This document shows positions 3,711 through 20,815 of a stretch of DNA of 64,000 nt, in pieces. Under the pieces are notes generated by a model, which was not told the origin of the DNA, ran no database searches, and worked only from the letters and a program-made list of their open reading frames with translations. Origin of the DNA: a virus; IMG/VR virus record IMGVR_UViG_3300021376_000010; one strand, 5' to 3'. A program made the translations under genes and the position numbers. Within the stretch, counting starts at the first letter, position 1. Each line of letters starts with the position of its first letter.

Positions 3711-3736
3711 TTAAGAATATCTCCTTGTAGTGCAAA

Positions 3737-4813
3737 TTAAGAAAGTGCGATTGCCATTACAATTGCTCTTGTATCAACATACTTTTTATTGGCAGCATCC
3801 AAATCAGAAGTTGCAGTTCCAACATTTATAACTTTATTATTTAGTGCATTGATTGTTGAACCAACACTTAAAGAGCCTCCTATTACAGCACCATCATTAA
3901 TTGAGATGCTTTCTGATAAAGATAAATTTGCAATATCATTTGATATTGTTAAATTTAAATTTTTATTTGCTGATAATGTTCTAGCAACTCCAACTGGACT
4001 TTGATTACTTCTAAATCTTATAGTAGAAGAAACGTTTGTCGGAGTATTTCCAGTTAGATTAGTAGCATCTAATGAAGCATTTATAGAAGTTGCGGTAATT
4101 ATTCCAACAACATTTAAATTTTGACCTATAGATGCTGAACCATTAACAGTTAAATTTGAAAAGGTATTTGGTGGGAGTCCTTCCTCTACTGATTTTCCAA
4201 ATACAGTAAAAGATACTCTAGAGTTATCAGATGAAGAATAAACTAATGTTTGTCCATTTGATAATTTTAAATTAGTTCTTACGTAGGATTCATTTGGTGA
4301 AACTAGTTCATCATATTCTACGTACTGCGAACTATTAAAATCTAATGCAGATGAAGTTGCAATTCCCAATCTTACTTTAGAATTTAAAGATCCAAGATTG
4401 CAAGCAACTACTGTTACTTCAACTGACCTTCCAGAAGGTGCTGTATATAAAGCAAGTCTTTTATTTTTTGTAGATATTTCAGAGTTTAAAATTATAGAAT
4501 CTGTTGTATCTGTATATTCTTCACCATACAAAAGAAAGTTTGTATTTAATGAAGATGATTGTATAATTAAACTCTGTCCATTTCCAAAATAAATATTTTC
4601 AGATTCATATGTTTCTCCTCTCTCTAATACTGTAGAGGCAATATAGTTCAAATCAATAGAATTTGTAGAAATACCTACTTTAATTCTTACTGGTTCAAAA
4701 TTTTTATGTGAGATGGAAATTTTTCCATCTACTAAAATACCAGACGAAGAGGTATATAATATAGTATTTTTATTTGGAACTGGTATTGAAGACGATAAAA
4801 GGCCAAAAGCCAT
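3737..4813 (-). CDS. Virion structural/fibre connector protein
   Basis: 358 aa. Two tandem copies of the ~100-aa domain also found in 16488..16808. C-terminal DAANKKYVD fibre motif. Preceded by TATAAATA. Confidence 0.7.
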   Translation of the reverse strand: MAFGLLSSSIPVPNKNTILYTSSSGILVDGKISISHKNFEPVRIKVGISTNSIDLNYIASTVLERGETYESENIYFGNGQSLIIQSSSLNTNFLLYGEEYTDTTDSIILNSEISTKNKRLALYTAPSGRSVEVTVVACNLGSLNSKVRLGIATSSALDFNSSQYVEYDELVSPNESYVRTNLKLSNGQTLVYSSSDNSRVSFTVFGKSVEEGLPPNTFSNLTVNGSASIGQNLNVVGIITATSINASLDATNLTGNTPTNVSSTIRFRSNQSPVGVARTLSANKNLNLTISNDIANLSLSESISINDGAVIGGSLSVGSTINALNNKVINVGTATSDLDAANKKYVDTRAIVMAIALS

Positions 4814-4835
4814 AATCTACAACTTAACTTTTAAT

Positions 4836-4843
4836 TATTTATA
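4836..4843 (-). promoter_or_regulatory. T4-type late promoter TATAAATA
   Basis: Plus strand tatttata; perfect T4 late consensus ~22 nt upstream of ATG 4813. Confidence 0.75.
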
Positions 4844-4854
4844 ATTCACTTATT

Positions 4855-5640
4855 ATGATTATTCTTACAGGGCATTCTGGATTTATTGGGAAGAAATTTC
4901 TTGAAAAAATAAATCAACCAATTATTAAGGTTGAAAAGGATGATTCGTTTAAATTCCTATCCTCCTTTACTGATTGGGATAAGGTAAAATTAATCTTGCA
5001 TCAAGGAGCAATTTCATCGACGACCGAACGCAATATTTCTACTTTACACCACCATAATGTTGCATTTACTCTGATGTTGTTTGATTATGCCATTCAACAC
5101 AAAATTCCAGTAAAGTTTGCATCATCTGCATCAGTCTATGGAAATACTTTGGGTACTATTAATCCATTGAATCATTATGCAATTACTAAATTGCAAATTG
5201 ATTATTTTATCCAAGACAATATTGATAAATTTTCTTCTATTCAATCTTTTAGGTATTTTAATGTATATGGTCAAGGAGAAGACCATAAAGGAGACCAAGC
5301 ATCACCAATATCAAAGTTCACTAAACAGATTAAAGAAACTGGTAAACTTAAACTATTTGAAGGTTCTGATAAATTTTTGAGGGATTTTATATGTGTTGAT
5401 GATGTGGTTGATATTGTTATGAATAGTAATATTCCTTCTGGAATTTATGATTTAGGAACTGGCAACCCAATTTCATTTCAAGAAGTTGCAGAATTAGTCA
5501 TAAAAAAAGAAGGAGGTGAGATTGAACTCATCCCCTTCCCAGAACATCTTAATGGCAAATATCAAGATTACACTAAAGCAAATATGCAATGGATTGACAA
5601 ATATAAATTTACTACTGTTGAAGAGTATCTCCTTCGATAA
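4855..5640 (+). CDS. hldD: ADP-L-glycero-D-manno-heptose 6-epimerase-like extended SDR
   Basis: TGHSGFIG Rossmann motif, HQGAISSTTE, ASSASVYG, YxxxK (YAITK), FRYFNVYGQGEDHKGDQAS, RDFICVDD, YQDYTKA: all characteristic of HldD/RfaD. Confidence 0.85.
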   Translation: MIILTGHSGFIGKKFLEKINQPIIKVEKDDSFKFLSSFTDWDKVKLILHQGAISSTTERNISTLHHHNVAFTLMLFDYAIQHKIPVKFASSASVYGNTLGTINPLNHYAITKLQIDYFIQDNIDKFSSIQSFRYFNVYGQGEDHKGDQASPISKFTKQIKETGKLKLFEGSDKFLRDFICVDDVVDIVMNSNIPSGIYDLGTGNPISFQEVAELVIKKEGGEIELIPFPEHLNGKYQDYTKANMQWIDKYKFTTVEEYLLR

Positions 5641-5977
5641 CTCTAATACTATCTTCATCAAAATGCTCTGTAGAGAATTCAAACAATTCAGTATCTTCTA
5701 GAGCATACATCCTATGTCTAAGTCCTACAGGAACATGGAATTTATCCCCTTTCTTTAGGACTCTTTTTTGTGCTAATTCAATATCATCAGTCTCTCCATA
5801 AAATAATATTAATTTTCCAGACTGAATATAAAATGTTTCATCTTTTACTTTATGGTAATGCCAAGAACATTTTCCTCCTTTTGCAAAATAAAGAAGTTTT
5901 CCGCAGTACTTATCGCAGTTTACAATCCACTTTTCAAATCCCCATCCTTTGGGAACAAATTTAATTGAAGAAGTCAT
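5612..5977 (-). CDS. Cupin-fold sugar(-phosphate) isomerase-like protein
   Basis: VPKGWGFEKWI, CSWHYHKVKDETFY and HRM..EFST cupin metal motifs. Likely start MTSSIK at 5977. Confidence 0.75.
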   Translation of the reverse strand: MTSSIKFVPKGWGFEKWIVNCDKYCGKLLYFAKGGKCSWHYHKVKDETFYIQSGKLILFYGETDDIELAQKRVLKKGDKFHVPVGLRHRMYALEDTELFEFSTEHFDEDSIRVIEGDTLQQ

Positions 5978-6293
5978 TAGCATTCATTCCTTTGTCATCT
6001 ATGTATATATCTCCACTTGGTTTCCCAAGTATTAGTTCATGGTATCTACAACCCCATATCTCTAGTTGCATCTTAGTTAAATTATAAAATTTTTGAATAG
6101 CTTTATCACTATTATCTTCATATCTTCCCATACCACGAGCAGAAAAATATTTAATTCTATGCCCCTCATCAAATAACGAATTAATTTTTTTTATTCTTTC
6201 TGGGATGGGAGTACTTCCTTCATACTTACAAGAAGAACAATCTCCATTAGTACAAATAGTACCATCAATGTCTATTACATATGTTGTTAACAT
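5961..6293 (-). CDS. Small HAD-family phosphatase (capsule-biosynthesis phosphatase-like; candidate GmhB role)
   Basis: DIDGT motif I, FSARG motif II, GKP..D.YIDDK motifs III/IV. Confidence 0.75.
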   Translation of the reverse strand: MLTTYVIDIDGTICTNGDCSSCKYEGSTPIPERIKKINSLFDEGHRIKYFSARGMGRYEDNSDKAIQKFYNLTKMQLEIWGCRYHELILGKPSGDIYIDDKGMNANDFFN

Positions 6294-7029
6294 CTTTTTG
6301 ATTTAATACGTAAGTTCCTTGGTTTTGAATTGCTATAGATGCTGCTCTGTTTGCTAATGCTATTGACCTGTTTATGTTATTAGTTTTTAAATATCCATAT
6401 GTCAATGCAGCAAGAAAAGTATCCCCAGCACCAACAACATCATATACATTAACCTTTTCTGCTGGGTAATGAGTGTCTTTATAATAGCATCCCTCAGAAC
6501 CCTTCGTAACAATTAGATTAGAATATTCGTAATTATTTTCTAATTTTTCATATTCAATGTGATTGATTTTAATAAAGCAATTTTCTTTGTTGGGCAAAAC
6601 AGTTTTTTTACTATCTATGAATACTGGAATGCTAGATGATTCTGCAATTTCGAATAATTTCTTAGTAGTTATGTATCCTTTGTTGTAATCTGATATTACA
6701 ATTGCATCAAAATTGGACATACTTATTGGGAGAAGCAAAGGTTTTATTGGTTCCTCGTTATCAACTCTAAGTAATTGTTGATTTGATTTTTCATCTATAA
6801 ATCTAGTTTTAACTATTTTTTCAGAATTAGTTAAAAAAGTGACATCTATATCAAATGATTGGAGATTAAAGCAAACATTTGCTGCCATGCCTGCTTTAGT
6901 TTCTATTTTTGAATAGTTCATTACTGGAACTGGTGCTTCGGGATTTAGCCTTTCGCATTTTCCATAAACATATTCATCTTCACAACTATCCCCTATCAAT
7001 AATACTTTGAATGATTTTTGTTGTGGCAT
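6265..7029 (-). CDS. PfkB-family kinase, HldE/RfaE domain I (heptose-7-phosphate kinase-like)
   Basis: LLIGDSCEDEY, RLNPEAPVPV, GMAANV, KTRF, SDYNKG, DVVGAGDTF. Start probably ATG 7029 (MPQQKSF), not 7047. Confidence 0.85.
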   Translation of the reverse strand: MPQQKSFKVLLIGDSCEDEYVYGKCERLNPEAPVPVMNYSKIETKAGMAANVCFNLQSFDIDVTFLTNSEKIVKTRFIDEKSNQQLLRVDNEEPIKPLLLPISMSNFDAIVISDYNKGYITTKKLFEIAESSSIPVFIDSKKTVLPNKENCFIKINHIEYEKLENNYEYSNLIVTKGSEGCYYKDTHYPAEKVNVYDVVGAGDTFLAALTYGYLKTNNINRSIALANRAASIAIQNQGTYVLNQKDVNNICNRH

Positions 7030-7387
7030 AATCTCCAATCCTATCAAAGAATATTAGTTTGGCAGCATAATAAGAACCTATAACGGATTTGCCTTTCCAA
7101 TCAGAACCTACAACCATTATATCTGGTTTAAAAGATTTTATCAATCCTTCCAGTTCTTCATCGCAGGAAAAAAATCTTACCTCATCTACTGCTTTTAAAT
7201 TTTCTAAGAAAAATTTTCTTTCTTCTTGACTATGTATAGGTCTTGTTGGACCCTTCTTTTCCTTTACTCTTTCATCAGTGTCAATACCTACACACAAATA
7301 GTCACCAAGACTTTTTGCATAGTTCAAAAGTTCAAGGTGACCTCTATGTAGAATATCAAATGTTCCGTTTACAAAAACTGTTTTCAT
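6986..7387 (-). CDS. Cytidylyltransferase-like nucleotidyltransferase, HldE/RfaE domain II (heptose-1-phosphate adenylyltransferase-like)
   Basis: NGTFDILHRGH (HxGH), GIDTD..V..KGPTRP, GSDW. ATGA-coupled to the upstream gene. Confidence 0.85.
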   Translation of the reverse strand: MKTVFVNGTFDILHRGHLELLNYAKSLGDYLCVGIDTDERVKEKKGPTRPIHSQEERKFFLENLKAVDEVRFFSCDEELEGLIKSFKPDIMVVGSDWKGKSVIGSYYAAKLIFFDRIGDYATTKIIQSIIDRG

Positions 7388-9096
7388 TTATTTGGAAAAT
7401 ATATAATTTTTTTTATTTCTGGTAGATACAAATATTCAATTTCACTGTTTCTCATAGTTTTAAATGCATCATCTATATTTTCTACCATTGTATCACCAGC
7501 AAGATTGAATGAAGTATTAAAAAGTATAGGAACTTTAGTTAATTCATAAAACTCTGATATAAGATTATAGTAATTTTTATTTTGTTCTTTTTTGAGAGTT
7601 TGAATTCTACATGTTCCATCAACATGAGTAATTGCTGGAATTTTATCTTGCTTTTCTTTCAATACATCAACAGCATACATCATATAGGGACTCTCATCAA
7701 GTCTATCCATATCAAACCAATCTGATGCATGTTCTAATAAGACAGTTCCAGCAAAAGGTCTAAAATACTCTCTTCTTTTTACTTTATTTACAATATCTTT
7801 TCCATTAGAAACTCTAGGGTCAAATAATATTGAACGATTCCCTAATGCTCTAGGACCTGATTCAGACTTTCCTTGTGCAATTGCAACAATGTTTCCTTGG
7901 ACCAAAAGGTTTGCCACATCTTTAGGTGTTACTTTGTATTCAAATTCATTATTTGAAAGATTATATTGATATGTTAAACTTTGTCCCAAGTAGATATTAT
8001 CATATTTTAAATTTGAATTTGGATTTACTTTTTGTATTAATTCAAAAGCAGCACCTAAAGAAATACCAGAATCTGAAGATACTGGTTCTACAAAAAGATT
8101 AACATCTTTTGGTAAAGATTTTAATAGTTTATAATTTGCTACACAGTTTAAAGCACATCCTCCTGTTAAAATTAAATTTCTAGAATTTGAAAGTGATAAT
8201 GCTTTTTTGCATAGATTTATTAGATAATCTTCATATTCATTTTGTATTTTATATGCAAGGTTTTGTCTTCTTCTTTCTAGTTCTTTATTACCATAATTAG
8301 CAGTCCCAGATAAAATCTTAATATCATCAGAGCACCAATGTGAATCGGATGCTTCAATATAATCATATCCTTTTAAAATTATTCCAATATTTTCTACATT
8401 ATGATAATTAATTATTCCACATCTTTCAAATAATCCACCATCTTTTGTTAATATTGATTTTATATTTGAGTCTTCTTGTCCATATGGGGCAAGACCCATA
8501 GTTTTTCCACATTCTAAACTACCCCATCCCAACCATTCCGTAACTGCCGAATAAACCATTCCAGCACCAATAACTTTTTGTTTTTTTACATAGTTTGGTA
8601 CTAATGTTTTTCTTTTATTTGTGACTTCCTCATTCGGCATTCCAAAAATTGATTGTTGCAAAATTTTTAAGGCACAATCTTTTTTTGCTTCAAAAATAGT
8701 TTCATTTTCTTTTCCATAATCATAATCTGCTCCTGCCCCATCAATGACAACAATTGTAGCATCATCAAAATTTGAATGCTTATAAGCACAATGTGCATGT
8801 AGATGGTGATGAGGAGATGGAGTAGAATAGTTTAAAACGACTATTCCACAAACATACTGAAGATATTTTACATATACTGTTGGGTCTGTATTAAAATCCC
8901 AAAGGTAAGTAAAGCAACAATAATCAATAACTTTAGTATATTCTTTTACTAAAGATAATCCATGAAGAGGAAATTTATCATTCTTTATATGAGTTAATCT
9001 CTCTTCTTCAAGATGAAGAACAATTTCATCATCTTTAAATAAAGTTATTGATGCATCATGATGAATATTGAATGATAAAATCCACATAGTCATCAT
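7384..9096 (-). CDS. NodU/CmcH-family O-carbamoyltransferase (copy 2)
   Basis: HHDAS, EEERL, HHHLHA, DGAG, GKTMGLAPYG, GGCALNCVAN, ESGPRALGNRSIL, RPFA, HVDGTCRIQT, NTSFN. Confidence 0.9.
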   Translation of the reverse strand: MMTMWILSFNIHHDASITLFKDDEIVLHLEEERLTHIKNDKFPLHGLSLVKEYTKVIDYCCFTYLWDFNTDPTVYVKYLQYVCGIVVLNYSTPSPHHHLHAHCAYKHSNFDDATIVVIDGAGADYDYGKENETIFEAKKDCALKILQQSIFGMPNEEVTNKRKTLVPNYVKKQKVIGAGMVYSAVTEWLGWGSLECGKTMGLAPYGQEDSNIKSILTKDGGLFERCGIINYHNVENIGIILKGYDYIEASDSHWCSDDIKILSGTANYGNKELERRRQNLAYKIQNEYEDYLINLCKKALSLSNSRNLILTGGCALNCVANYKLLKSLPKDVNLFVEPVSSDSGISLGAAFELIQKVNPNSNLKYDNIYLGQSLTYQYNLSNNEFEYKVTPKDVANLLVQGNIVAIAQGKSESGPRALGNRSILFDPRVSNGKDIVNKVKRREYFRPFAGTVLLEHASDWFDMDRLDESPYMMYAVDVLKEKQDKIPAITHVDGTCRIQTLKKEQNKNYYNLISEFYELTKVPILFNTSFNLAGDTMVENIDDAFKTMRNSEIEYLYLPEIKKIIYFPNK

Positions 9097-9098
9097 GT

Positions 9099-10781
9099 TT
9101 AATTGGGAATATAAACAAGTTTTTGAATTTCTGGTAGGTACATATATTCAATATCACTCTGTTTTAAAGTATTAACACCATCTTCAACAGTTTCAACTAG
9201 AGGATCACCACCAAGATTGAAACTAGTATTGAACAGAATTGGAACTTCACTTAACTTCTCAAAAGCATCAATGAGATTATAATAATGTTGATTTTGTTCA
9301 GGAGTTACAGTCTGAATGCGGCAAGTTCCATCAACGTGAATGACCGAAGGAATTTTATCTTCAACACCATCTTGACACTTTACTGCATACATCATGTGTG
9401 GAGTTTCATCACGACCAGTTAGGTCAAACCAATCATGTACACATTCTTTCTTGATAGTACATGCAAATGGACGGAACCATTCACGACGTTTTACTGTATT
9501 TACGATATCTTTACCGTCTTTAATAGTTGGATCAAACAAGATAGAACGGTTGCCCAAAGCACGAGGACCACCCTCAGAACGACCTTGGTACATAGTAACA
9601 ATATTTCCTTCACGGATTAGTTTCGCAACTTCATCATATGAAGTATCAGTTACTTCAAGACCATCTAGAGCATCTTCATAGGTATCAGGGTTGTATTGAG
9701 GACCATAATAAACAGAAGCTTGTTTTAGAGGAGTTTTGTTTGATGTTACTTTATGCCAAACATATTTTGCACCTCCAATTGATGTTCCACCATCATGGGA
9801 AATTGGTTCACAATAGATATTCAAATCTGGGAACTCTTTCCAATACTTGTAATTGGCAACACAGTTTAGGCCATATCCACCACAGATAACAATATTTTTC
9901 TCTCCAGTTTCTTCATGTGCTTTACGAATCAGTTCGACCATTCTATCCGAAGTTGCTTCTTGAATAGCATATGCCATGTCCTTTTGAATTTCTGTATACT
10001 CATTTCTTTTATGATTTTCTACATCATTCATCAAAACTTCATATCTTCCAACATTTATTTTTGCAGCATTTGGATATGTGGGGATAATTACTTCTCTGTT
10101 TCCCCATCCATTAGTGAAGAATTTAGGAAGTGTGTCATTAGGTTTTCCGTAAGGGGCAAGACCCATTAGTTTACCTGCTTCAATAGCAGGGAATCCACAA
10201 TATTCAGTGACTGCTTCATACATTTTTGTATGACCAGGATACTCAGTAATAAAAACTCCATCACTTACTTGATTGCATCCAATTGGTGCTTTTGTTCCTA
10301 AGTGTTTATAAACTACTTCAAAATTGTTTGGATATGATGCTTGGAAAATAGTTTCAAATTCAAATACAACATCATCCACACCCTCAAATTTGAGAAAACT
10401 TCCAGCACCATCAGCAATTACACAAGCAGCAGTTTCAAATCCTGAGTTATAAAAACCACAAGCAGCGTGCATTTCGTGATGGACTGTATCAATGAAATGA
10501 ACTTCAAAGTCAAATTTTTTCTTTGCAAGTTTTCTTACCCATCCATGATACAGGTCTTCTCCAGTCCAATCCAATTGTGGACCATGCCTGTGGGTATGGC
10601 AAACAACCAAATGGTCAATATGGTCTACGTAATCAAATACCTTTTCAAGCCCCAATAGTGGAGAACCATCATATTTAAATTTGGACAATCTTTCTTCTTC
10701 TAGATAGAAAATAACTTCACCATCTTTTAAAAGAGTTGTGCTTCCATTATGTCCACGAGCACATGCTGCAATAATAGTCAT
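9099..10781 (-). CDS. NodU/CmcH-family O-carbamoyltransferase (copy 1)
   Basis: GHNGS, EEERLS, HHEMHA, DGAG, GKLMGLAPYG, GGYGLNCVAN, EGGPRALGNRSIL, RPFA, HVDGTCRIQT, NTSFN. GAGGAG RBS. Confidence 0.9.
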   Translation of the reverse strand: MTIIAACARGHNGSTTLLKDGEVIFYLEEERLSKFKYDGSPLLGLEKVFDYVDHIDHLVVCHTHRHGPQLDWTGEDLYHGWVRKLAKKKFDFEVHFIDTVHHEMHAACGFYNSGFETAACVIADGAGSFLKFEGVDDVVFEFETIFQASYPNNFEVVYKHLGTKAPIGCNQVSDGVFITEYPGHTKMYEAVTEYCGFPAIEAGKLMGLAPYGKPNDTLPKFFTNGWGNREVIIPTYPNAAKINVGRYEVLMNDVENHKRNEYTEIQKDMAYAIQEATSDRMVELIRKAHEETGEKNIVICGGYGLNCVANYKYWKEFPDLNIYCEPISHDGGTSIGGAKYVWHKVTSNKTPLKQASVYYGPQYNPDTYEDALDGLEVTDTSYDEVAKLIREGNIVTMYQGRSEGGPRALGNRSILFDPTIKDGKDIVNTVKRREWFRPFACTIKKECVHDWFDLTGRDETPHMMYAVKCQDGVEDKIPSVIHVDGTCRIQTVTPEQNQHYYNLIDAFEKLSEVPILFNTSFNLGGDPLVETVEDGVNTLKQSDIEYMYLPEIQKLVYIPN

Positions 10782-10791
10782 AGTTTACTCC

Positions 10792-11952
10792 TCAAACTGT
10801 TTTCATTGTGTCCATAAATCCTAATGATTTTTTATTTCCATTAGATTTGATGCCATTCTCTTCTAGGACTGCATCTATTGAATTAAGTGCTTTTTTTGTT
10901 TGCTCCGATGATGCTCCAGTAAGTTGAGGTGCTTGTTCCAACTTTGCGGGAGGCATACCACAAGATGCTTGTTGCTGTTCCATTGTTGGAAGAACAACAG
11001 AATCAGTCTTCTTTACATAATATCTATTCATCAATTTATCGACCGACTGAAGAATGACCGACTCAACTTTGTCATTCATTGCCATAATACCATCATTTGT
11101 TCTGCCACTTACTTCATCCATTGTAATACGAATTGGATCGTAGATTCTTAGACCTTCACCCATATCAAGAACTTCAAATTTATCACAATTTGGATAACTG
11201 ATATTTTCTTTACAGGTTGCCCCAACTATAACTACAGCAGGAATATCCAAAGAATATGCCATATGCTGACCAACAGAATCGCACCCAATGAAAAGATCTG
11301 ACTCTGCAATAATACCTGCCCATTGTCGTAAGTCAATACCTCTTGGGCAAGCAACTGGGTCTTTACAACCTTCTTTCTGGAAGTCTAGTTCAACTTCCCC
11401 CATATAAATTACGGAATATTTCTTTTGTAGTTTTTTTATGATTGATACAACGTTAGTAAATTCAAAACTTCTACCACTAGAATCAGTAATGAAATTGCCC
11501 ATCACCTGAGTTCCACGTCCAAATGGTTGGAAGACTACAACTTTTTCTTTCTTTGTTTTTTGCTTAACTTCCTCTACTACAAATTTACCATTAATCATTT
11601 CTTGTCTAGAAAGTTTAATGGTCGGTTTTTGAAGTTCTCGAACGCCTTTATCATTGATTTGAATATCAAAAGCCTGAGATAGGTTACACTTTTGATTATA
11701 GTATTCCCAGATACGATATGGTTCTGTTGTAACGATGTCCATATCCTTCAGTTTATCTCTGAAGAGATTTTTGTGCCAATGGTCGTAAACTTTTTGGAAA
11801 AGAGTTGGGTGTCCTTTGAAGAAATCTGTGCCTCCTTCGCAGACAATCAAAAAGTCTTTATCTGGGTTTTCTTCTTGGTATTTTTCAAATGCTGGTATCG
11901 AGCAAATCACTCTGCCTGCCCCACCATTTACAAAAAATGCTTTTGATCTCAT
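10792..11952 (-). CDS. GT-B glycosyltransferase, GT9 (heptosyltransferase)-like
   Basis: N-terminal GGAGRVICSIP loop; VVFQPFG; C-domain LRQWAGIIAESDLFIGCDSVGQHMAYSLDIPAVVIVGAT matches the GT9 DS..H.A..L..P pattern. Confidence 0.7.
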   Translation of the reverse strand: MRSKAFFVNGGAGRVICSIPAFEKYQEENPDKDFLIVCEGGTDFFKGHPTLFQKVYDHWHKNLFRDKLKDMDIVTTEPYRIWEYYNQKCNLSQAFDIQINDKGVRELQKPTIKLSRQEMINGKFVVEEVKQKTKKEKVVVFQPFGRGTQVMGNFITDSSGRSFEFTNVVSIIKKLQKKYSVIYMGEVELDFQKEGCKDPVACPRGIDLRQWAGIIAESDLFIGCDSVGQHMAYSLDIPAVVIVGATCKENISYPNCDKFEVLDMGEGLRIYDPIRITMDEVSGRTNDGIMAMNDKVESVILQSVDKLMNRYYVKKTDSVVLPTMEQQQASCGMPPAKLEQAPQLTGASSEQTKKALNSIDAVLEENGIKSNGNKKSLGFMDTMKTV

Positions 11953-11995
11953 TTTATCGCCTCAAACAAATGATGATGTTTTAATTATACAATTT

Positions 11996-12003
11996 TATTT
12001 ATT
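11996..12003 (-). promoter_or_regulatory. Late-promoter-like AATAAATA (flanked by two TATAAT) upstream of the modification cassette
   Basis: Minus strand TGTATAATAAATAAAATTGTATAAT directly after the terminator U-tract, ~45 nt before ATG 11952. Confidence 0.5.
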
Positions 12004-12006
12004 ATA

Positions 12007-12031
12007 CAAAAAAGGGAGGGGTTTCCTCCCT
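12007..12031 (-). terminator. Rho-independent terminator
   Basis: Minus strand AGGGAGG-AAACC-CCTCCCT followed by TTTTTT, ~35 nt after the stop at 12067. Confidence 0.85.
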
Positions 12032-12066
12032 CCTTTATTCTAACAGTTTAAAATTAAAACAGTCAA

Positions 12067-12945
12067 TTATTCGTTTTCTGATTCTTCTGTATTTTCTTCT
12101 TCTGCTGAATCACTAATTTGTTGTGGTTCTATAGTTGAGATATCAATTTCTTTTCCATCTCTATATGGTTTACCATCAACATACTCAACTGGACCTTCTG
12201 GTTTTGGAGGTGCTTCTGTTCCTGTTTTGTTATCAATACCAAATGCATTTCCATTTGATGCACTCCAATTATCCAATCCCATTGGATTCGATGGGAATGG
12301 AACCATCCAAGGAGTATCTAAATAATCTGCATATTTAACTGTAACATTATCAAGAGCAGTTAAATATGCTGCCCATTTTGTCTTTTGTGTGGAAGTAAAT
12401 CCAGTTGTTTCTGCTTTTTTTTCTAGTTTTTTGATTGACTCTAATGCATACAAAAGTTCTTCTTTTGTAATATGTGGTTTTTTCCATGGGAATGGTTTTT
12501 TCCATTCTTTAGTTTCGAAATCAAATTCAACCTCTCCCACTTCAATTGTTTTATTTGGATATGGTGGATTTGGTCTAGTATAAAATGGTTCTGTCTCTCC
12601 ATCCAAAGTATACGTCTTATGTGGTATTTCGTCTATAGATGGACCTATTGAATTACCAACAACTGCTGCTAAAAGTAAGGGTTCTTCTTCTACGTCAATC
12701 AAGGCATAATCATATCCTAAACCAGAGAAAGTATCTGCAGCTGCGTCATTTTCTTCTCTAGTTCTATCATCCTCATATAACATCCAACCCAACATACTAT
12801 TAATTTTTTTGGTATCTTTAAGTATCATAACATAAACTTTATCTGGACCTTCATAAGTCCATTCAGCAGTCAGACCAAGTTTATTTGTTTGTAGCAAATA
12901 ATCGTCTGGTATATTATATGTGAATTTTTTAGTCGTTTTTGCCAT
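12067..12945 (-). CDS. Tail-fibre assembly chaperone-like protein (divergent) with acidic C-terminal tail
   Basis: KWAAYLTALDNV..PWMVPFPSNP resembles the W..YRQ.LRD.P..P.WP..P tail-assembly-chaperone motif. Lies directly after the adhesin genes. Confidence 0.5.
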   Translation of the reverse strand: MAKTTKKFTYNIPDDYLLQTNKLGLTAEWTYEGPDKVYVMILKDTKKINSMLGWMLYEDDRTREENDAAADTFSGLGYDYALIDVEEEPLLLAAVVGNSIGPSIDEIPHKTYTLDGETEPFYTRPNPPYPNKTIEVGEVEFDFETKEWKKPFPWKKPHITKEELLYALESIKKLEKKAETTGFTSTQKTKWAAYLTALDNVTVKYADYLDTPWMVPFPSNPMGLDNWSASNGNAFGIDNKTGTEAPPKPEGPVEYVDGKPYRDGKEIDISTIEPQQISDSAEEENTEESENE

Positions 12946-12987
12946 AATACTTAACCTTTCTCCTGTTTTTTATTTATTTAAATCTAA

Positions 12988-13947
12988 TTAAACATATCTT
13001 ACGGTTACACGTACTGCACCTGCCCAACCAGGATTTCCACAGCAACAACCACCCCCACATACAGTTGCAGAAGCACCACCCAAACCAGGAACATAATTGT
13101 GGTCAATATAACCACCAAAACCCAAATTACCTGCTGCCCATGATTGATTCCAATTTCCGCAAGTAGAATTTTCACATTGGTGTGATGAGACCCAACCACC
13201 TTTTTGGTTTACTAATCCTCCTGGATAAGCAATGTGGTACATGTTCCAGCAACGGTTTTGGTGACAGAATAAACCATAAGCACCAGGAACACCAAATGCC
13301 CCGCCATCTGCACCAAAATAACGAGCACAGCAACCAACACATGAAGTATTGAGACCCACAACGTTACCAGTTCCACCAAATCCCTCAGAAGCTCCTATTG
13401 CGGTCTTCCAATAGCACTTATTACCACAGAACTGAGTAATACAGAAAGAGCAACCTCCCCATCCACCTTCAGCATAAAAACCAGTAAGTCCAGTTCCAGT
13501 TACTGTAGTGCATTCACCTCTTAAACCAGTATCATTAGGAACTTTACATGTTGGTGAACCAATTCTAAAGACATATGGTGTTCCAGATGCTACACCAACA
13601 ACGGTTTTGAATGCATAAGCACCCGATCCTCCAGGAATTCCGTAAGCACAGCAGCAAGCACCTGCTCCACCGCCACCAGCACCCCAAATTTCAAAGGTAA
13701 TTGCAGTTGTACCTGCTCCAGGATATGAAGGAACTTTCCAGCAACAATATACAAAATTGTTAAAACCCATCGTAAAGTCACCTGCTGGTGCTTGACAACA
13801 AGTGGTTTCGTAACTACCGTCGGTATTACCGCACATGTGTGCCATGAAATAAGTTACTTGACCCTCTCGAAGTCTTCCAATTCCACCTGAATGTATTCCT
13901 GTAAAATTTGGTTCTGCTGAACCCAACAGAGTTCTAAGATTTGCCAT
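12988..13947 (-). CDS. Cys-rich glycine-rich adhesin-like tail protein (paralogue 3)
   Basis: 319 aa, ~25 Cys (hand count). FEIWGAGGGGAGACCC..PGGSGAYA.K, AEGG.GG, FGADGG, GAVRVT. Confidence 0.7.
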   Translation of the reverse strand: MANLRTLLGSAEPNFTGIHSGGIGRLREGQVTYFMAHMCGNTDGSYETTCCQAPAGDFTMGFNNFVYCCWKVPSYPGAGTTAITFEIWGAGGGGAGACCCAYGIPGGSGAYAFKTVVGVASGTPYVFRIGSPTCKVPNDTGLRGECTTVTGTGLTGFYAEGGWGGCSFCITQFCGNKCYWKTAIGASEGFGGTGNVVGLNTSCVGCCARYFGADGGAFGVPGAYGLFCHQNRCWNMYHIAYPGGLVNQKGGWVSSHQCENSTCGNWNQSWAAGNLGFGGYIDHNYVPGLGGASATVCGGGCCCGNPGWAGAVRVTVRYV

Positions 13948-13972
13948 TTTTAATATTTCCTCTTAAAGGTAT

Positions 13973-14935
13973 TTATCTATAGGTGATTCTAATTAGACCA
14001 GCTGTTCCAGGTGCAGAAATACAGCAACCACCCGCACATGTAGTTACAGAAGGATGCCCTGAACCTCTCATTCCCATACTACAGTTACTATTTCCAGGCC
14101 ATTCACCTAACCAACATTGTGCTCTTTCATTGCAGCAAGCATTTCCTGGATTTCTGTGAATAATATATCTTACTTCTTTATCACGGACTCCACCTGGTTG
14201 AGGAATACCAAGTCTTACGAAACAGTTATTTCCACAAATACAATCTACACGGAACCATCCCATTCTTCCAGGAACACCAAAATCTGCTCCATAATAGCAA
14301 GCACAATCACAAGCTCTACAACTACCAGGAACTGGATCTAATGAATAGCAACCCAATGAACCTCTTGGTGTTGTTCCAGTTGTTCCTCCAGGACCATATG
14401 TTCCAGTTAAATTAGCACCATGCTCATTATAGAAAATAAAGCAACATGTTCTACCTGGCATTCCGCCTTCAGCACAGAAGTTAGTGAGACCACATCCAGT
14501 TATCCATGTTTTGCATCCAGTAGCACCTAAGCAGGATGATGAGCAAGTTGTTGTTGGACCAAGGCACCATAGATAACAAAGACCACCTAAGGTTTCTAGT
14601 CCCATGTCTCTTGCACAAAGTGTTTTCATTGCATATGCACCTGAACCACTTGGAGTTCCTTGCATACAGCAACATGATCCTGCACCACCTCCTCCACCAC
14701 CCCAAATGTGGAATTGGACGGTAGTTACTCCAGGATAGACACAAAATCCACCACACCACTGCCTGTAACTGGTATCACAGGAATTAAGCCAACAGCCTCC
14801 ACCAAAAAATGTATCAAAACCATCTACAAGAGTATTGCCCCATCCATTTCCCCATTGGGTGGAACGGAATCCGCACACTCTTTGTTGGAGTTCAACTTGA
14901 TTTTCTGTATTTAATAATTCTCTTAATCTAGCCAT
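13973..14935 (-). CDS. Cys-rich glycine-rich adhesin-like tail protein (paralogue 2)
   Basis: True start probably ATG 14935 (MARLRELL; AGGAG upstream, matches paralogue N-termini). 320 aa, ~33 Cys. FHIWGGGGGGAGSCCC..PSGSGAYAMK, FCAEGG, YGAD, GLIRITY. Confidence 0.7.
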   Translation of the reverse strand: MARLRELLNTENQVELQQRVCGFRSTQWGNGWGNTLVDGFDTFFGGGCWLNSCDTSYRQWCGGFCVYPGVTTVQFHIWGGGGGGAGSCCCMQGTPSGSGAYAMKTLCARDMGLETLGGLCYLWCLGPTTTCSSSCLGATGCKTWITGCGLTNFCAEGGMPGRTCCFIFYNEHGANLTGTYGPGGTTGTTPRGSLGCYSLDPVPGSCRACDCACYYGADFGVPGRMGWFRVDCICGNNCFVRLGIPQPGGVRDKEVRYIIHRNPGNACCNERAQCWLGEWPGNSNCSMGMRGSGHPSVTTCAGGCCISAPGTAGLIRITYR

Positions 14936-14948
14936 TTGAAATCTCCTA

Positions 14949-16088
14949 TTAACCGTAAGTGATACGAACCATTCCAGAATGTCCTGGACCACCACAATAG
15001 CAGTTTCCACCTTCTGAAGAAGCTGATCTTCCACCCAACCCAACAATACCTTCTTCTGCACGTAGAGAACTATGTCCAAAGTAATCTGAGAATCTATACT
15101 GGGAAGAATCTGCACCAGAAAGATTCATAGATTGATATCTATATGGAAGATAACCACCTCTAGTATTAATTAGTCCACCAGGGAATGGATGATACTGAAC
15201 AATCATGCACCAGTCCATTGCTTGATTGCATGGTGAACCTAACAGTCCAGGAAGACCTCTTGCTCCACCATCAGCACCAAAGAAGGGAGCACAGTAAGCA
15301 CATTGATTAGTACAAATACCACCAAAGCAAGGATTGAGAGCATGACCATAAGAAACTCTACGTCCATTTGACCCAAAGGTAGTTCCAGCACCAATTAAAT
15401 CATATTGGAGTCTTGTTACGTCTTGATATTCAAGTGGATAATGTCCAATACCACCACCAGGAGTAAAGCAAGAAAATCCACAATTTCCCCAATGACCACC
15501 ACAAGCTTCACACATGTGTCCACCAAAAGGCATTGCTTGGCTTTCATTACATGAGTGACAATAATCACATATGCAATACATTTCAAAAGTGCTTTCTCTG
15601 TTCATACAGTTTGAACAGAATGATGCACCACCAAAACCACCTTCCGCACAGAAGTTATTCAATCCATATCCAACTACAAATGACTTACATCCACGAGAAC
15701 CCCACTGGGCTGGGTTGCAACAAGAAGCAGATGCGGCACATATTTCGTATGATTGTCCACCTAAATCAAATCCAGTGCAAATGCACTTATATGCATAAGC
15801 ACCCGATCCTCCAGGAGTTCCCCACATGCAACAGCAAGTGCCAGGTCCTCCACCACCTCCTCCCCAAATTTCAAACTTGATAAAGGTAGTTCCCGCTGGT
15901 GGTCTCCAAACATAGCATTCAAAATATCTATGTCTATTTACAGCACAATGGGTTCTGAATTGTACTTGATGATACTCAGAACCAGGAAAACTAATAGGTG
16001 TTGTTGGGACCGTACTGATTCCTGTTGTTTGGAATGACGCAATTTGTTGTTGGTCAGTATAACTAATTAAATCTCTTAAATTTGCCAT
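14949..16088 (-). CDS. Cys-rich glycine-rich adhesin-like tail protein (paralogue 1)
   Basis: 379 aa, ~30 Cys. FEIWGGGGGGPGTCCC..PGGSGAYAYK, FCAEGG.GG, FGADGG, GMVRITY. GGGGAG RBS. Confidence 0.7.
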   Translation of the reverse strand: MANLRDLISYTDQQQIASFQTTGISTVPTTPISFPGSEYHQVQFRTHCAVNRHRYFECYVWRPPAGTTFIKFEIWGGGGGGPGTCCCMWGTPGGSGAYAYKCICTGFDLGGQSYEICAASASCCNPAQWGSRGCKSFVVGYGLNNFCAEGGFGGASFCSNCMNRESTFEMYCICDYCHSCNESQAMPFGGHMCEACGGHWGNCGFSCFTPGGGIGHYPLEYQDVTRLQYDLIGAGTTFGSNGRRVSYGHALNPCFGGICTNQCAYCAPFFGADGGARGLPGLLGSPCNQAMDWCMIVQYHPFPGGLINTRGGYLPYRYQSMNLSGADSSQYRFSDYFGHSSLRAEEGIVGLGGRSASSEGGNCYCGGPGHSGMVRITYG

Positions 16089-16118
16089 TTTATATCTCCC
16101 CTAATTTTTTGGCAATTA

Positions 16119-16457
16119 TCATGCGTTCAGAAGAACCCATCCATATTGTGATCCAGAATAAAGAAGATCTACAGCATTGTTGGGAATATTTAATATTAGA
16201 GACTCATTCAAGTTAGCAATTTTTGTAGTTGTTGTATTGACTCCTACAGTGCAGAAATTTGTTTTCCAGTTCCCTGTTGGGTCAACGATAGAAACTCTAT
16301 CTCCGATGTTTGCTGTATCAGCACTTGGGATATTGATTGTAATGGCATTACTTGTCGTATCAACAAGATATGTTCTACCACTAGTTGCGGTATACGGTGT
16401 AGTACTTACAGTTACAACTTCTGTCGTAAATGTTGGTGCAGAAATGAAACGTCCCAT
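16119..16457 (-). CDS. Small tail-fibre connector domain protein
   Basis: YLVDTTSNAITINIP..IGDRVSIVD..W..N motif of T4-like fibre domains. Homologous to the C-half of 20812..21261. Confidence 0.6.
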   Translation of the reverse strand: MGRFISAPTFTTEVVTVSTTPYTATSGRTYLVDTTSNAITINIPSADTANIGDRVSIVDPTGNWKTNFCTVGVNTTTTKIANLNESLILNIPNNAVDLLYSGSQYGWVLLNA

Positions 16458-16487
16458 TGTTCTAAATTACTCCTTTATGGTTGTTAA

Positions 16488-16808
16488 TTAAAGTGTGGAT
16501 TGCTCAACACCGTAAACGTTAACGCTTACATTACTGGAATTAGAATATGCAATAAGTCTCTTACCAGCATCCAAAACTAATCCAGTTCTCTCCAGAACAC
16601 CATTGGGTGCAATAAAAGAATTAAATTCGATGAATTCAGCATTTGTTGGTGTTGCGGTTGCTGCAAGTGCTACACGAACAGCAATATCTGTAGCATTTCT
16701 ATTTGATACGTTAACATTAACGTATGCAAGTGTGCTAGTAGGAACAGTGTAAACTGTTGTATAAGTTGTAGAAGCAAGTGCTACTTGTCCTAGTACTCCA
16801 GATGCCAT
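16488..16808 (-). CDS. Small virion structural protein
   Basis: 106 aa, TVYTVP..VNVSNR..VRVALA..EFIEF..VLERTGLVL. Late promoter and GGGAG RBS upstream. Confidence 0.65.
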   Translation of the reverse strand: MASGVLGQVALASTTYTTVYTVPTSTLAYVNVNVSNRNATDIAVRVALAATATPTNAEFIEFNSFIAPNGVLERTGLVLDAGKRLIAYSNSSNVSVNVYGVEQSTL

Positions 16809-16849
16809 TTAAATCTCCCAATTTTTTTTGATTCAATCTTATATGCAAA

Positions 16850-16857
16850 TATTTATA
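16850..16857 (-). promoter_or_regulatory. T4-type late promoter TATAAATA driving the adhesin operon
   Basis: Perfect consensus in the 60-nt intergenic gap. Confidence 0.75.
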
Positions 16858-16868
16858 ATGTACAATAA

Positions 16869-19800
16869 TCAAGAAGTAGCAACCCAATAGGTAAATGGTC
16901 TGCTCTTAATCAATGTGCCATCAACGTATGCTTTTACTGCTGCTTGTGTAGGAACTTTTTCGTTGCTATTTTGGGAAAGTGTAACATCAGTAGAGAATTC
17001 ATTAATTTGAGCTCCCAACTGAGCACCAATAGAACCAAGTCTCAAGGATGTTAGACCAGAAAGGTCGAATGCAGATGCGTTCAATGTTGCTGCACCTGTT
17101 GCCTGGTTAACACGGAAGTACTTACCTACACGGAAGTTACCATTTTGGTCAGTAGAAACATAGTAAACACGACCAGGATAATCTTCTGTTACTTCTTTAG
17201 ATGGAATTGGATCTACGGTTGGTACACCAGGCCAATTGGTTGTTGATGTTCCACCAGTACCAATCTGCAAGAAGTCGTGACCAGTCAATCTAACTTGTGA
17301 ATACAAGTATCTAATTCTGAATGATTGCTCATCAAAAGTTTTATTTGCTTTTTCTTCTGCAAGAATCAATGTAGTTCTTCCTGTAGTATCAATTCCAATG
17401 GAAGTAACTTTCATGAATTCGTTATCAATCTTAATGAAGTTATCAGTTGAGAATCCACTTACGCTATTTACTCTTACAAATGTTTGTACAGGAGTTTGGT
17501 CTTTGATTACCTGAGTTGATGCAATAGTATTTGCAACTCCAATTGCTCGGAATACTGTTCCATTTGAATAACCAGTTGCGATTCCAGCACCTTCTTGTGC
17601 TCTTAAAACTGTCATTGCAATTGAAGAATCCAAGTTCACAATCTTCATTAACTCATTTGCTGGTGTAAGAACAAATCCATTCTGGAAGAATCCAGCAGTT
17701 GAACTTACAACGATTTGTGTATCAGATGTACCGATTGGGGAAGCAACCGTTGCTGTAACATTAGTAAAAGGATAATTTCTAATATTATTATTTGTTCCAA
17801 AATGTTTTGCGGCAGTTGTGTTCAACTGTGCTCTATTTACGTTAACATTTCCTCTTCCATCAGGAGCAAGGAAACTTACATTCTGAATAACATAAGTAAA
17901 TGGATCTGCACCAGTAATAGTTGTTGCAGCAGTTCCAATTGAACCACCATTTCCACTACCTGTTACAAATTCAATACTTCCTCCAGTCTGTAAATTATTT
18001 TGAAGTCCTCTTACAACAATGGTAAATCCGCTTTGTCCTCTATTTGCATCAGTATTATTTGTCAAATATGCTTGAGTTCCAGATGTTTGTCCTGTGATGA
18101 GTTCATTTTGTCTGAAACCTGAACCACTTGGTCCAGAAGTAACAACACTATAATAAAGTGCAGCAATTGATGTTTGAACAGAAGTTAGTTCTCCAACTGC
18201 ACCAGAAGTTGCTCCAATCACTCTCTCTCCCTGAATAAATCCAGGTGCAGTAATTGTCTCAATATTATACTTTAACTGAAGACCTTCTACTGTTCCACTC
18301 AAGAATGCTTCATCGGTGTTATATCCAGAACTTACAATACCATAGTTACCCCATGAACTATTTCCTGCAAGAGAACGAATTCTTCCTCCACGAGTTGAAC
18401 AGTAACTAACATGTGCATAATAAGTAAAGCAGGAAACCATTTCTGCTGCAGCATTATTGGTAACCCAGAAACCAACACCGTTATCATGAATATTTGTCCA
18501 AGAGTCAAAAACGATTGATTTATTAGATCTTTGTGGAGTATTATCGTATTGTTTGTGTACTTTTCCATCGACTACTGCTCCAACACCACCACTTGAAAAC
18601 GCAGAACAGTTAGAAATGTATGGTGATTTTGTAATTGGTGAATTTGGATTCAGTTTTACAAATACACCACGAACTGTTGCATTATTTAAATCTCTATCAC
18701 TAGCAGTAAATGTTACTGGAGTAGATGAAACTGTTTGTGCAGTATCTACTTCTACTTGTGTTGCGCTTATGTAAGTTACAACTTTAGTTCCAACTGTAAT
18801 TCCAGTTCCACTAATGACGGTTCCAACCAAATCTGGTTCCATTTCTGCGGTTGAATTGGTTAAAATTGTCCCAGAAATTGAAGCAGTTGCAGTTTTGAGA
18901 GTACCAGCAGGAACAAATCCCGTCAAACCTTCCATAACAATGTCTTTAAGCATAGTTCTATCACTAAGCATAAACATTGTTGATTGGGAATTTGACAAAG
19001 TTACTGCATTATCTACAGTAATATCAGAGGCACCATTTTCCCAAGTATCAACACCTGATATCCATAAACCACCAGTAAGTGGTTCGATTTCTACTTTTTT
19101 CTGAGAGAAGTTGAAATCTAAAATTCTAGCAGTTTTAGTTCCAGCACCATTAGCAATAGTTGCACCATACTGCATAGCAGTTGATGGGGCAGAGTTTAGA
19201 GTCAATACTTGGTGATTTGCATTACCTGCTGCTGGTACAATTTTTGTAGTTCTTAGGTTATCTCCTACAATGGTTACGTTTGCTGGAACAGTAATTGGAA
19301 GTTGTTCTTCATATGTTCCTGCTTTTACATAAATTGTTGCTGGACCAGTTACAATACCACAAGCATGTTTAATTGTAGCAAAAGCACGGTTAATATTCTT
19401 ACCATCGTTACCGTCACTACCTTCTTCTGCTACATAGAAAACAGGATAAGTTACATTATTTGTTTCCCAAACTGGTACTCCTGCTGGAGAAACAGTCAAT
19501 ACTTTTCCATTAGTTCCAATTGGAAGAGCTGCTGGACCTGCACCAGATTGGTAAATAATATCACCAGTTGCAGAAAGAACGTTAGTTGCAGAACCTTGAG
19601 TTAATGGATTCCAATATGTACCAAGAGCATCTGTGGCAGGGTCATTATTAAAGTTAGTTGATGCTACACTAACATAACTATTGGAATTTCTATAAATTGT
19701 ATCACCTTGTTCATATGTGGTGACAGATGACCAAGCACCTTTCCACTCAAATCCTTTAATAATCAAGTCCCACTTATTAGGTACTTGAACTGGATTGCTG

Positions 19801-20402: not shown

Positions 20403-20416
20403 TTTTGTTTAATTCC

Positions 20417-20815
20417 TTACTTAGGTCCTGCGGTATTGTAATCGTATGTGCCACCAACTCTGGCAACAAAGTATCCATCATCATCGATGAAATAAGAAAT
20501 TCTTCGAAAATCAAACCTGAACTGTTGATATTTATCAGCAGGGTGGTTGGTATATGATTTTTCTTCTGTAGTTTCTTCAACGTAATCAATTCCTTCCAAA
20601 AAGTCGGGATATTGACTACCATCTTTTCTGTAAAAATCACCAACTACATTAGAATCAGTTGATCTTACTTGTGTGTAATAAAGCATTCCACTAGAATCTC
20701 TGCGAACAGCATGAATATACCAATCATTTTCTTTTTTTAGAGTAGAAGTATCGTTAAACGAACTGCCTGCACTAGAAGAAGATGATGCCATACTTCCGCT
20801 TAAGAACATTGTCAT
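20417..20815 (-). CDS. Conserved hypothetical tail-associated protein
   Basis: 132 aa, ATGA-coupled to the upstream gene. YQQFRFD..ISYFIDDDGYFVAR. Confidence 0.6.
   Translation of the reverse strand: MTMFLSGSMASSSSSAGSSFNDTSTLKKENDWYIHAVRRDSSGMLYYTQVRSTDSNVVGDFYRKDGSQYPDFLEGIDYVEETTEEKSYTNHPADKYQQFRFDFRRISYFIDDDGYFVARVGGTYDYNTAGPK

Follow-up and report, generated by a model that had tools for sequence, protein, structure and literature searches.

Mycobacteriophage glycosyltransferases encoded in the structural region reportedly modify the phages' own virion proteins, as Freeman et al. are said to have described in 2023 (cited in PMC12801897). TibC and AAH, enzymes of the glycosyltransferase family 9 (GT9) fold, are encoded beside the adhesins TibA and AIDA-I and decorate them, using cytoplasmic ADP-heptose. 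In cyanomyoviruses, sugar-related genes have been listed as 'lipopolysaccharide (LPS) genes' without a decision on their role ('functional or stuffer DNA') (Sullivan et al., 2010; PMC3037559). The host-recognition clusters of pelagimyophages hold sugar genes as well, which were read as means of host O-chain modification (PMC7029224). The stretch of DNA analysed here, denoted as the window, comprises 64,000 nucleotides (nt) of the viral record IMGVR_UViG_3300021376_000010 and is part of a 103.6-kb IMG/VR contig (L008). At 4855-16808 it carries a cassette of eight enzyme genes, a putative sugar-nucleotide pathway with a glycosyltransferase and two carbamoyltransferases, behind three genes for Cys/Gly-rich proteins. 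It is proposed with moderate confidence, from sequence, that this cassette decorates the phage's own fibre proteins, above all their Cys/Gly-rich tips.

The major capsid protein encoded in the window shows 74-78% identity to Kyanoviridae capsids (Sf-FS3, S-SCSM1, P-SSM2). The phage is therefore classed by its sequence as a T4-like cyanomyovirus without a close cultured relative; the sole megablast match to the window is a single 74%-identical segment of S-CAM3. The region of the cassette and the adjoining fibre genes is best explained as one functional block of the host-recognition cluster of such a phage.

Organization and transcription of the block

In the order of transcription of the minus strand, the block consists of the following features (window coordinates; lengths in amino acids, aa).

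14949-16088, minus strand: predicted Cys/Gly-rich fibre-tip paralogue 3, 379 aa, 30 Cys; phrog_4205, Pfam Gly_rich_2
13973-14935, minus strand: predicted Cys/Gly-rich fibre-tip paralogue 2, about 320 aa from an internal ATG, 33 Cys; phrog_4205
12988-13947, minus strand: predicted Cys/Gly-rich fibre-tip paralogue 1, 319 aa; fold matches of its AlphaFold2 model
12067-12945, minus strand: chaperone-like partner of the Cys-rich proteins, 292 aa; phrog_9740
12015-12033, minus strand: strong intrinsic terminator ending the structural transcript; GC hairpin followed by a T run
11996-12003, minus strand: late-type promoter motif AATAAATA of the enzyme operon; 7/8 match to TATAAATA
10792-11952, minus strand: GT9-fold, heptosyltransferase-like glycosyltransferase, 386 aa; phrog_8954, fold and donor motif
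9099-10781, minus strand: O-carbamoyltransferase 2, conserved partner of the transferase, 560 aa; Carbam_trans_N and Carbam_trans_C, best NCBIfam match NodU
7384-9096, minus strand: O-carbamoyltransferase 1, an extra paralogue, 570 aa; Carbam_trans_N and Carbam_trans_C
6986-7387, minus strand: heptose-1-phosphate adenylyltransferase-like nucleotidyltransferase, 133 aa; TIGR02199 rfaE_dom_II (E = 3.6e-33, 114 bits against a cut-off of 181.5)
6265-7047, minus strand: heptose-7-phosphate kinase-like PfkB kinase, 260 aa; TIGR02198 rfaE_dom_I (E = 5.3e-48, 164 bits against 345)
5961-6293, minus strand: small HAD phosphatase, GmhB analogue, 110 aa; DxDGT motif, TIGR01689 capsule-biosynthesis phosphatase, PDB 9iqw and 1xpj
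5612-5983, minus strand: cupin, candidate sedoheptulose-7-phosphate isomerase or sugar epimerase, 123 aa; Cupin_2
4855-5640, plus strand: HldD-like ADP-heptose 6-epimerase, convergent with the operon, 261 aa; TIGR02197 (E = 1e-59)

This arrangement agrees with the original prediction in four respects. The eight enzyme genes are wedged between structural genes, with tail-fibre genes (PHROG) on both flanks; they lie behind the three Cys-rich proteins and the chaperone-like gene; seven of them are tightly coupled on the minus strand, since their spacing ranges only from +10 to -62 nt (gap to overlap); and they are preceded by a late-promoter-like motif. This motif lies directly after the terminator, 44 nt before the start codon of the transferase gene, and the terminator element (12033-12015) recurs in cyanophage-type relatives. 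Among these relatives, NTAAATA occurs at most 90 nt upstream of the transferase in 19/21 loci (5% of random windows), and almost none is present upstream of internal operon genes. ATAAATA is found within the same distance upstream of fibre and chaperone-like genes in 79-100% (25 loci) and upstream of the small fibre gene family in 19/19. From these motifs we infer that the enzyme operon is separately promoted and of late type.

Contigs assembled from RNA libraries (lake-water and 'aquatic' metatranscriptomes) cover the transferase gene and span its junction with the carbamoyltransferase gene. None spans the terminator region (11971-12061), a weak negative as the libraries may contain DNA, and cover over the heptose genes (7200-9600) is little or none, which cannot rank expression. 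For the cultured relative P-SSM2, a published study gives quantitative PCR of three marker genes only, without data on the enzyme operon (PMC6628666).

Enzymes of the cassette

The cassette is supported as an ADP-heptose-like sugar-nucleotide pathway combined with a GT9-fold transferase and O-carbamoyltransferases. Kinase, nucleotidyltransferase, and epimerase find their best NCBIfam matches in the two halves of HldE and in HldD, as had been predicted; all score under the equivalog cut-offs and are clear relatives. The epimerase reaches 202 bits against 274.6 with heptose_epim and has the GxxGxxG and YxxxK motifs. For the HldE/GmhB/HldD pathway originally assumed, candidate enzymes are present in the window; a GmhA-type isomerase is not. 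SIS-type GmhA (PF13580) gave no match in five complete cyanophages with the heptose set, and 9/14 control genomes matched. Because GmhA was not found, the cupin always accompanies kinase and nucleotidyltransferase, and its Atlas neighbours partly carry Lyx_isomer or MannoseP_isomer (a lead only), the cupin is proposed as a stand-in aldose-ketose isomerase. Alternatively, it may act as a sugar-nucleotide epimerase, like the Cap5F/WbuC cupins. In RefSeq entries of relatives (L001, L002, L003), the 110-aa HAD phosphatase bears the name 'phosphoheptose isomerase' and the cupin that of a 'cysteine dioxygenase', both apparently misnomers.

Both carbamoyltransferases score above the cut-offs of Carbam_trans_N (E 1e-21 to 5e-23) and Carbam_trans_C (E 1e-57 to 1e-59) and show the full two-domain NodU/TobZ architecture, with a Kae1-like N-terminal and a YrdC-like C-terminal domain. 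Carbamoyltransferase 2 adjoins the transferase in most loci; carbamoyltransferase 1 was found in only a subset of relatives.

The transferase had been called GT9-like, an assignment that is supported by fold and motif and that its sequence profiles do not reach: the protein scores 16.5 bits with Pfam GT9 (PF01075; cut-off 22) and 25.5 bits with TIGR02201 (cut-off 170). Its AlphaFold2 model (predicted local distance difference test, pLDDT, 77; predicted template modelling score, pTM, 0.76) retrieved GT9 structures at Foldseek ranks 1-13 throughout (E 2e-10 to 3e-7), among them a Veillonella GT9 protein (3tov), WaaF (1psw), TibC (4rap/4rb4), WaaC (2gt1), and 2h1h/2h1f. In a profile of 53 diverse family members, D225-S226-x-G-Q-H230 aligns with the donor motif D-(S/T)-G-x-x-H of WaaC and WaaF, and D225 and H230 are invariant. 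A nearly invariant Arg14 (G-G-x-G-R) stands opposite the G-D of WaaC with its catalytic Asp13, in a weakly aligned segment (-3.3 bits). By gene context, ADP-heptose is the candidate donor: kinase, nucleotidyltransferase, and cupin accompany the transferase.

Cysteine-rich proteins as predicted fibre tips

The three Cys-rich paralogues contain 7.8-10.3% Cys (25-33 residues each) and 17-21% Gly; the neighbouring fibre proteins contain 0-0.4% Cys. The family shares the N-terminus M-A-x-L-R and a core W-G-G-G-G-G...C-C-C...P-G-G-S-G-x-Y. The middle gene exists as predicted, although not with the start at 15115; most likely it begins at the internal ATG at 14935, which yields the N-terminus MARLR as in the paralogues.

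A model of paralogue 1 (pLDDT 74.5) matched the Bxb1 tail tip (9d93 Qa/Qb, E 1.6e-5), the fibre of cyanophage Pam3 (7ypx, E 2.4e-5), and the glycine-rich domain of ALK/LTK, with template modelling (TM) scores of only 0.36-0.50. Because of these matches to the Bxb1 tail tip, the Pam3 fibre, and the TNF-like domain of ALK/LTK, the Cys/Gly-rich proteins are modelled as TNF-like fibre-tip proteins, in line with their earlier designation as adhesins. On paralogue 3, Gly_rich_2 reaches 24.1 bits (cut-off 24.3). The 292-aa chaperone-like gene alternates 1:1 with Cys-rich genes in jumbo-type loci (see below), and, as leads only, Phage_tail_APC and Caudo_TAP are found among the Atlas neighbours of its product.

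Linkage and transfer between phage lineages

A word-indexed search yielded 3889 relatives of the transferase, hundreds of viral contigs carry it, and 131 distinct loci were counted in the transferase-based search of IMG/VR. In the first 80 IMG/VR loci and seven isolates, the transferase-carbamoyltransferase pair, sometimes inverted in place, adjoins the Cys-rich and chaperone-like genes; the gene order is common to P-SSM2, P-SSM5, S-CAM1, S-CAM3, S-SSM7, S-SSM6a, and Sf-FS3, and the Cys-rich orthologues of P-SSM2 are PSSM2_304-306. Reciprocally, of 52 loci that were retrieved with a divergent Cys-rich protein as query and had enough flank, 51 carry the transferase downstream. The adjacency of Cys-rich genes, glycosyltransferase, and carbamoyltransferase, which was to be checked across T4-like phages, is kept in two deeply divergent lineages. 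The Cys-rich protein was not found in four transferase-free isolates (S-T4, P-TIM68, S-SM2, and Mosig), with P-SSM2 as positive control; tblastn with Cys-rich proteins is insensitive owing to the low-complexity filter. At L218, L229, and L232, a lone Cys/Gly-rich gene directly precedes very large fibre genes and the transferase is not within reach, the sole exception to the linkage among the arrangements found.

The heptose genes are present in 16/16 cyanophage-type loci whose flanks are complete; in many further loci the block is reduced to genes for the fibre tips, the chaperone-like protein, the transferase, and the carbamoyltransferase. Long contigs of this reduced class encode capsids 68-73% identical to those of Rak2/GAP32-like jumbo phages and 31% to that of the window. 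Since the jumbo-type transferase is 63% identical to that of the window against these 31% for the capsids, the block of fibre-tip and enzyme genes is concluded to have passed from lineage to lineage in one piece. The three complete jumbo genomes (353-365 kb) also encode nucleotidyltransferase, kinase, and cupin, accompanied by the epimerase or not; two of these genomes have the set well away from the block, beside a fibre-like gene, and the third (G013) has it about 6 kb outside the fetched locus. The idea that jumbo-type phages lack heptose genes because their hosts supply ADP-heptose was rejected, as 3/3 of these genomes carry the set. Kinase, nucleotidyltransferase, and cupin were present in every complete transferase-carrying genome checked, and three different arrangements of transferase and heptose genes occur.

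In a third lineage, the heptose genes directly follow a more distant transferase, and both a carbamoyltransferase and the Cys-rich protein are absent; an example is the complete 162-kb genome G008 with a DLP6/Melnitz/phiM12-like capsid. Here the transferase neighbours RCC1-propeller proteins, sulfotransferases, methyltransferases, and family 2 glycosyltransferases (GT2). A single-protein search with the distant transferase P0156 returned no match.

psbA was not found in the jumbo-type and DLP6-like genomes, and these phages therefore probably infect other hosts; that it was not seen in incomplete contigs, the window's own included, is uninformative at 32-60% completeness. In GT-B enzymes, the N-terminal domain binds the acceptor. 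Across lineages this domain of the transferase is 67% identical and the donor domain 57%. As the acceptor-side domain is so similar although the hosts probably differ, its conservation points to an acceptor common to the phages.

Several loci show further variation. Second members of the transferase family occur in 32 jumbo-type loci (L207-L260, e.g. L208, L214, L247) in the order glycosyltransferase, carbamoyltransferase, glycosyltransferase, and a conserved 276-aa open reading frame (ORF) without Pfam match lies between transferase and carbamoyltransferase in jumbo-type loci (L044, 10987-11817). At L103 (5940-10004), L134 (9193-13791), and L173 (8529-13504), genes for sulfotransferases, FkbM, and other methyltransferases surround the transferase gene, be it alone or paired with the carbamoyltransferase gene; a GT2 gene (L103) or an adenosine-phosphosulfate (APS)-kinase-like gene (L134) completes a set that recalls Nod-factor tailoring. 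Genes for P4H-type 2-oxoglutarate (2OG)-Fe(II) oxygenases are interleaved with the cassette in S-SSM7 (L003), Sf-FS3 (L004), and P-SSM2 (L002), and in S-SSM7 also a tryptophan halogenase gene and denV; the cassette of the window contains none of these.

The acceptor of the sugar

The proposed mechanism starts with the cupin, which, in place of the missing GmhA, would convert sedoheptulose-7-phosphate to heptose-7-phosphate. The kinase would form the 1,7-bisphosphate, the HAD phosphatase would take off the 7-phosphate, the nucleotidyltransferase would yield ADP-heptose, and the epimerase would adjust C6. The GT9-fold enzyme would then transfer the heptose, which the NodU/TobZ-type enzymes would O-carbamoylate with carbamoyl phosphate and ATP. 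The targets would be the phage's own fibre proteins, chiefly the Cys/Gly-rich tips, and the sugar would be added in the cytoplasm at the stage of late assembly. The steps are deduced from the family assignments. The earlier claim that a carbamoylated heptose is attached to the phage's own tail proteins is partly supported: the pathway, the linkage, and the late-type motif stand, and the acceptor is proposed. Decoration of the phage's own fibres is favoured by the tight reciprocal linkage, the passage of the whole block between lineages, the late-type promoter, the conserved acceptor domain, the lack of psbA in the non-cyanophage lineages with their probably different hosts, and the reported lack of heptose and Kdo (3-deoxy-D-manno-oct-2-ulosonic acid) in cyanobacterial LPS (PMC4515613). 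A more specific version, a widespread and previously undescribed protein modification, has a small chance of being right: the GT9 variant, with Arg for the catalytic Asp, would put heptose, possibly S-linked, on motifs of the Cys-rich tips, carbamoylation would follow, a cupin isomerase would replace GmhA, and the kit would move with the fibre tips and tune host recognition or virion stability.

A number of observations weigh against decoration of the fibres. The genome G008 carries the transferase and the heptose genes and no Cys-rich fibre protein. The five heptose genes also occur in hli/nrd islands together with GT2-type transferases (S-T4, P-TIM68, S-SM2), where they look like polysaccharide genes. 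Synteny within the clade is partly inherited and hence not independent evidence, and the interval from the fibre genes to the neck gene is described as a general accessory-gene hotspot (PMC7029224), with unrelated genes in pelagiphage Mosig (L182). The late timing is a prediction from motifs, and the chemistry of the transferase is uncertain because Arg stands in place of the catalytic Asp of WaaC, in a weak alignment. Finally, a search control detected a GT9 family member in Synechococcus elongatus, so GT9 chemistry is not wholly foreign to cyanobacteria. In the Mosig locus, metabolic genes (2OG oxygenases, ferrochelatase, heme oxygenase, and a pcyA-like gene) lie between the long-fibre homologue and the neck gene.

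A serious rival, though on balance rather unlikely, is that the enzymes modify with carbamoylated heptose the glycan of the host envelope (LPS or a different polysaccharide) that the adjacent fibres recognize, which would block superinfection or stop the loss of progeny on debris. Both specificities would then have to match, so the enzyme genes would stay beside the receptor-binding genes, and masking of the receptor explains this linkage equally well. Receptor-blocking genes are located beside receptor-binding genes in T5 (llp) and P22 (gtrABC), and GT9 enzymes are classically LPS-core transferases. The literature takes the genes as LPS or cell-surface genes (PMC3037559, PMC7029224, PMC12801897), and the heptose genes of S-T4, P-TIM68, and S-SM2 lie beside several GT2-type transferases. 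One review reports cyanobacterial LPS without heptose and Kdo (PMC4515613), which agrees with the earlier statement that Synechococcus LPS lacks heptose. This report cuts both ways: a heptose-free host would explain why the phage brings the pathway, but the Kdo/heptose core used by GT9 enzymes would then be absent. Masking of the host surface also fits poorly with an acceptor-side domain so similar between phages of probably very different hosts, with the very tight co-occurrence with the Cys-rich fibre family, and with a late-type promoter, which leaves little time for remodelling the outer membrane. Moreover, Pfam scans of the window cassette revealed no Wzx/Wzy or bactoprenol-linked glycosyltransferase; the cassettes of relatives were not specifically screened.

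It is improbable that the acceptor is neither a virion protein nor a host glycan but, for example, a small molecule or a metabolite that is lipid-linked or cytoplasmic, giving a carbamoylated (in other lineages also sulfated and methylated) glycoconjugate by a Nod-factor-like or antibiotic-like tailoring logic. The sulfotransferases, APS-kinase-like protein, FkbM and other methyltransferases, and GT2 enzymes that neighbour the transferase elsewhere, as well as the halogenase and 2OG oxygenases interleaved in S-SSM7 and Sf-FS3, would suit such a product, and a conserved acceptor domain would suit a universal metabolite. On the other hand, scaffold builders (chitin-oligomer synthases, polyketide or peptide synthetases) were not seen, and the constant position in the fibre cluster and the near-exclusive co-occurrence with Cys-rich proteins would be left unexplained.

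Attachment of heptose and/or carbamoyl groups to hydroxymethylated pyrimidines of the phage DNA, an alternative raised by the original prediction, has lost ground and is very improbable: phage clusters with a GT-B transferase, HAD/kinase, and cytidylyltransferase do put heptose on 5-hydroxymethylcytosine, and hypermodification clusters can sit near structural genes (bioRxiv 10.1101/2023.12.21.572611), but neither a C5-methylase (PF00145) nor a ThyA-family hydroxymethylase was found in the complete genomes of P-SSM2, S-CAM3, and S-SSM7, and the best folds of the transferase are GT9, with T4 beta-glucosyltransferase not among the listed matches. A search for TET/JBP gave no match, and its controls gave none either.

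Flanking genes and further features

The block is bordered by fibre genes, and the following features were annotated around the enzyme and fibre-tip genes.

16869-20402, minus strand: long tail fibre, 1177 aa, with CBM5/12 modules, which opens the conserved block; phrog_9851 (E = 0), Pfam CBM_5_12
16850-16857, minus strand: late-type promoter motif TATAAATA before the small fibre genes; motif search
16488-16808, minus strand: small Ser/Thr-rich fibre-like protein, 106 aa, kept in the block; PHROG tail-fibre matches
16119-16457, minus strand: small Ser/Thr-rich fibre-like protein, 112 aa, kept in the block; PHROG tail-fibre and baseplate matches
3737-4813, minus strand: downstream tail-fibre protein, 358 aa, with its own TATAAATA motif at 4836-4843; phrog_11338

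Full-length relatives of the long fibre are encoded by the transferase-carrying isolates and by pelagiphage Mosig (32.9% identity, 82% coverage), which is without the transferase. Very large minus-strand ORFs (lengths include 1710, 2516, 1613, and 2616 aa), which presumably code for baseplate or fibre proteins, make up almost all of the remaining window (21290-62066). In the downstream fibre gene, an 81-nt segment (4099-4181) is swapped for a diverged one of equal length in RNA-library contigs of one study (runs X1/X2), which looks like a variable patch in the fibre protein. As near-identical contigs from the lake-water and 'aquatic' libraries of two studies occur for 3000-21000, the phage or a very close relative may be of freshwater origin.

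Significance

No publication proposing fibre decoration by the heptose and carbamoyl genes of cyanophages was found in a literature search. New in the present analysis are the two additional lineages, the movement of the block as a unit, and the genome-wide co-occurrence of transferase and heptose set, as well as the conserved acceptor domain, the fibre-tip fold, the missing GmhA, and the tests against DNA modification. Members of the transferase family are common and span three T4-like lineages. Decoration of the fibre tips, if true, would for the first time place a sugar on receptor-binding proteins of the most abundant phage group of the ocean, namely a sugar that one review calls absent from cyanobacterial LPS. 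It would assign a different job to the cyanophage 'LPS genes', unexplained since 2005-2010, and models of host range and adsorption of marine phages would have to include virion glycans. P-SSM2, S-CAM1, S-CAM3, and S-SSM7 are in culture, which makes the question directly testable.

Comparison with known systems

TibC is among the top fold matches of the phage transferase (4rap, 4rb4; TM 0.42-0.44). In contrast to TibC and AAH, with which it shares 12-14% sequence identity, the transferase is encoded by a phage, is paired with carbamoyltransferases, would act on a proposed substrate, and has Arg where the catalytic Asp of WaaC aligns (a weak alignment). With the LPS-core enzymes WaaC and WaaF (CAZy GT9), it has the GT-B fold and the donor motif D-(S/T)-G-x-x-H in common; it differs from them by scores below the Pfam and TIGRFAM thresholds and by its N-terminal catalytic loop, and the Kdo acceptor is reported absent from cyanobacterial LPS in the review cited above. 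The mycobacteriophage system of Freeman et al. is said to use other transferase families, sugars, and hosts than the window phage and to involve neither carbamoylation nor a phage-encoded sugar-nucleotide pathway.

The phage carbamoyltransferases have the Carbam_trans_N and Carbam_trans_C architecture in common with NodU, CmcH, and TobZ, and NodU is their best NCBIfam match, at 147 bits against an equivalog cut-off of 1000. The glycine-rich TNF-like fibre tips of Bxb1 and Pam3 have the fold that is modelled for Cys-rich paralogue 1. DNA sugar-hypermodification clusters likewise combine a GT-B transferase with sugar-activating enzymes, and heptose is among their products (bioRxiv 10.1101/2023.12.21.572611). 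They require, however, a cytosine methylase and a 5-methylcytosine dioxygenase, of which the methylase is absent from three complete relatives of the window phage, and their transferases resemble T4 beta-glucosyltransferase, unlike the GT9-fold enzyme of the window. The 'LPS gene' clusters of cyanomyoviruses (T4-GC 302-308; P-SSM2, S-SSM7, S-SM2) comprise the same gene families as the cassette, and the loci of P-SSM2 and S-SSM7 are syntenic with the window; the study that listed them draws no link between the 'LPS genes' and fibre-tip proteins (PMC3037559), the link that is proposed here.

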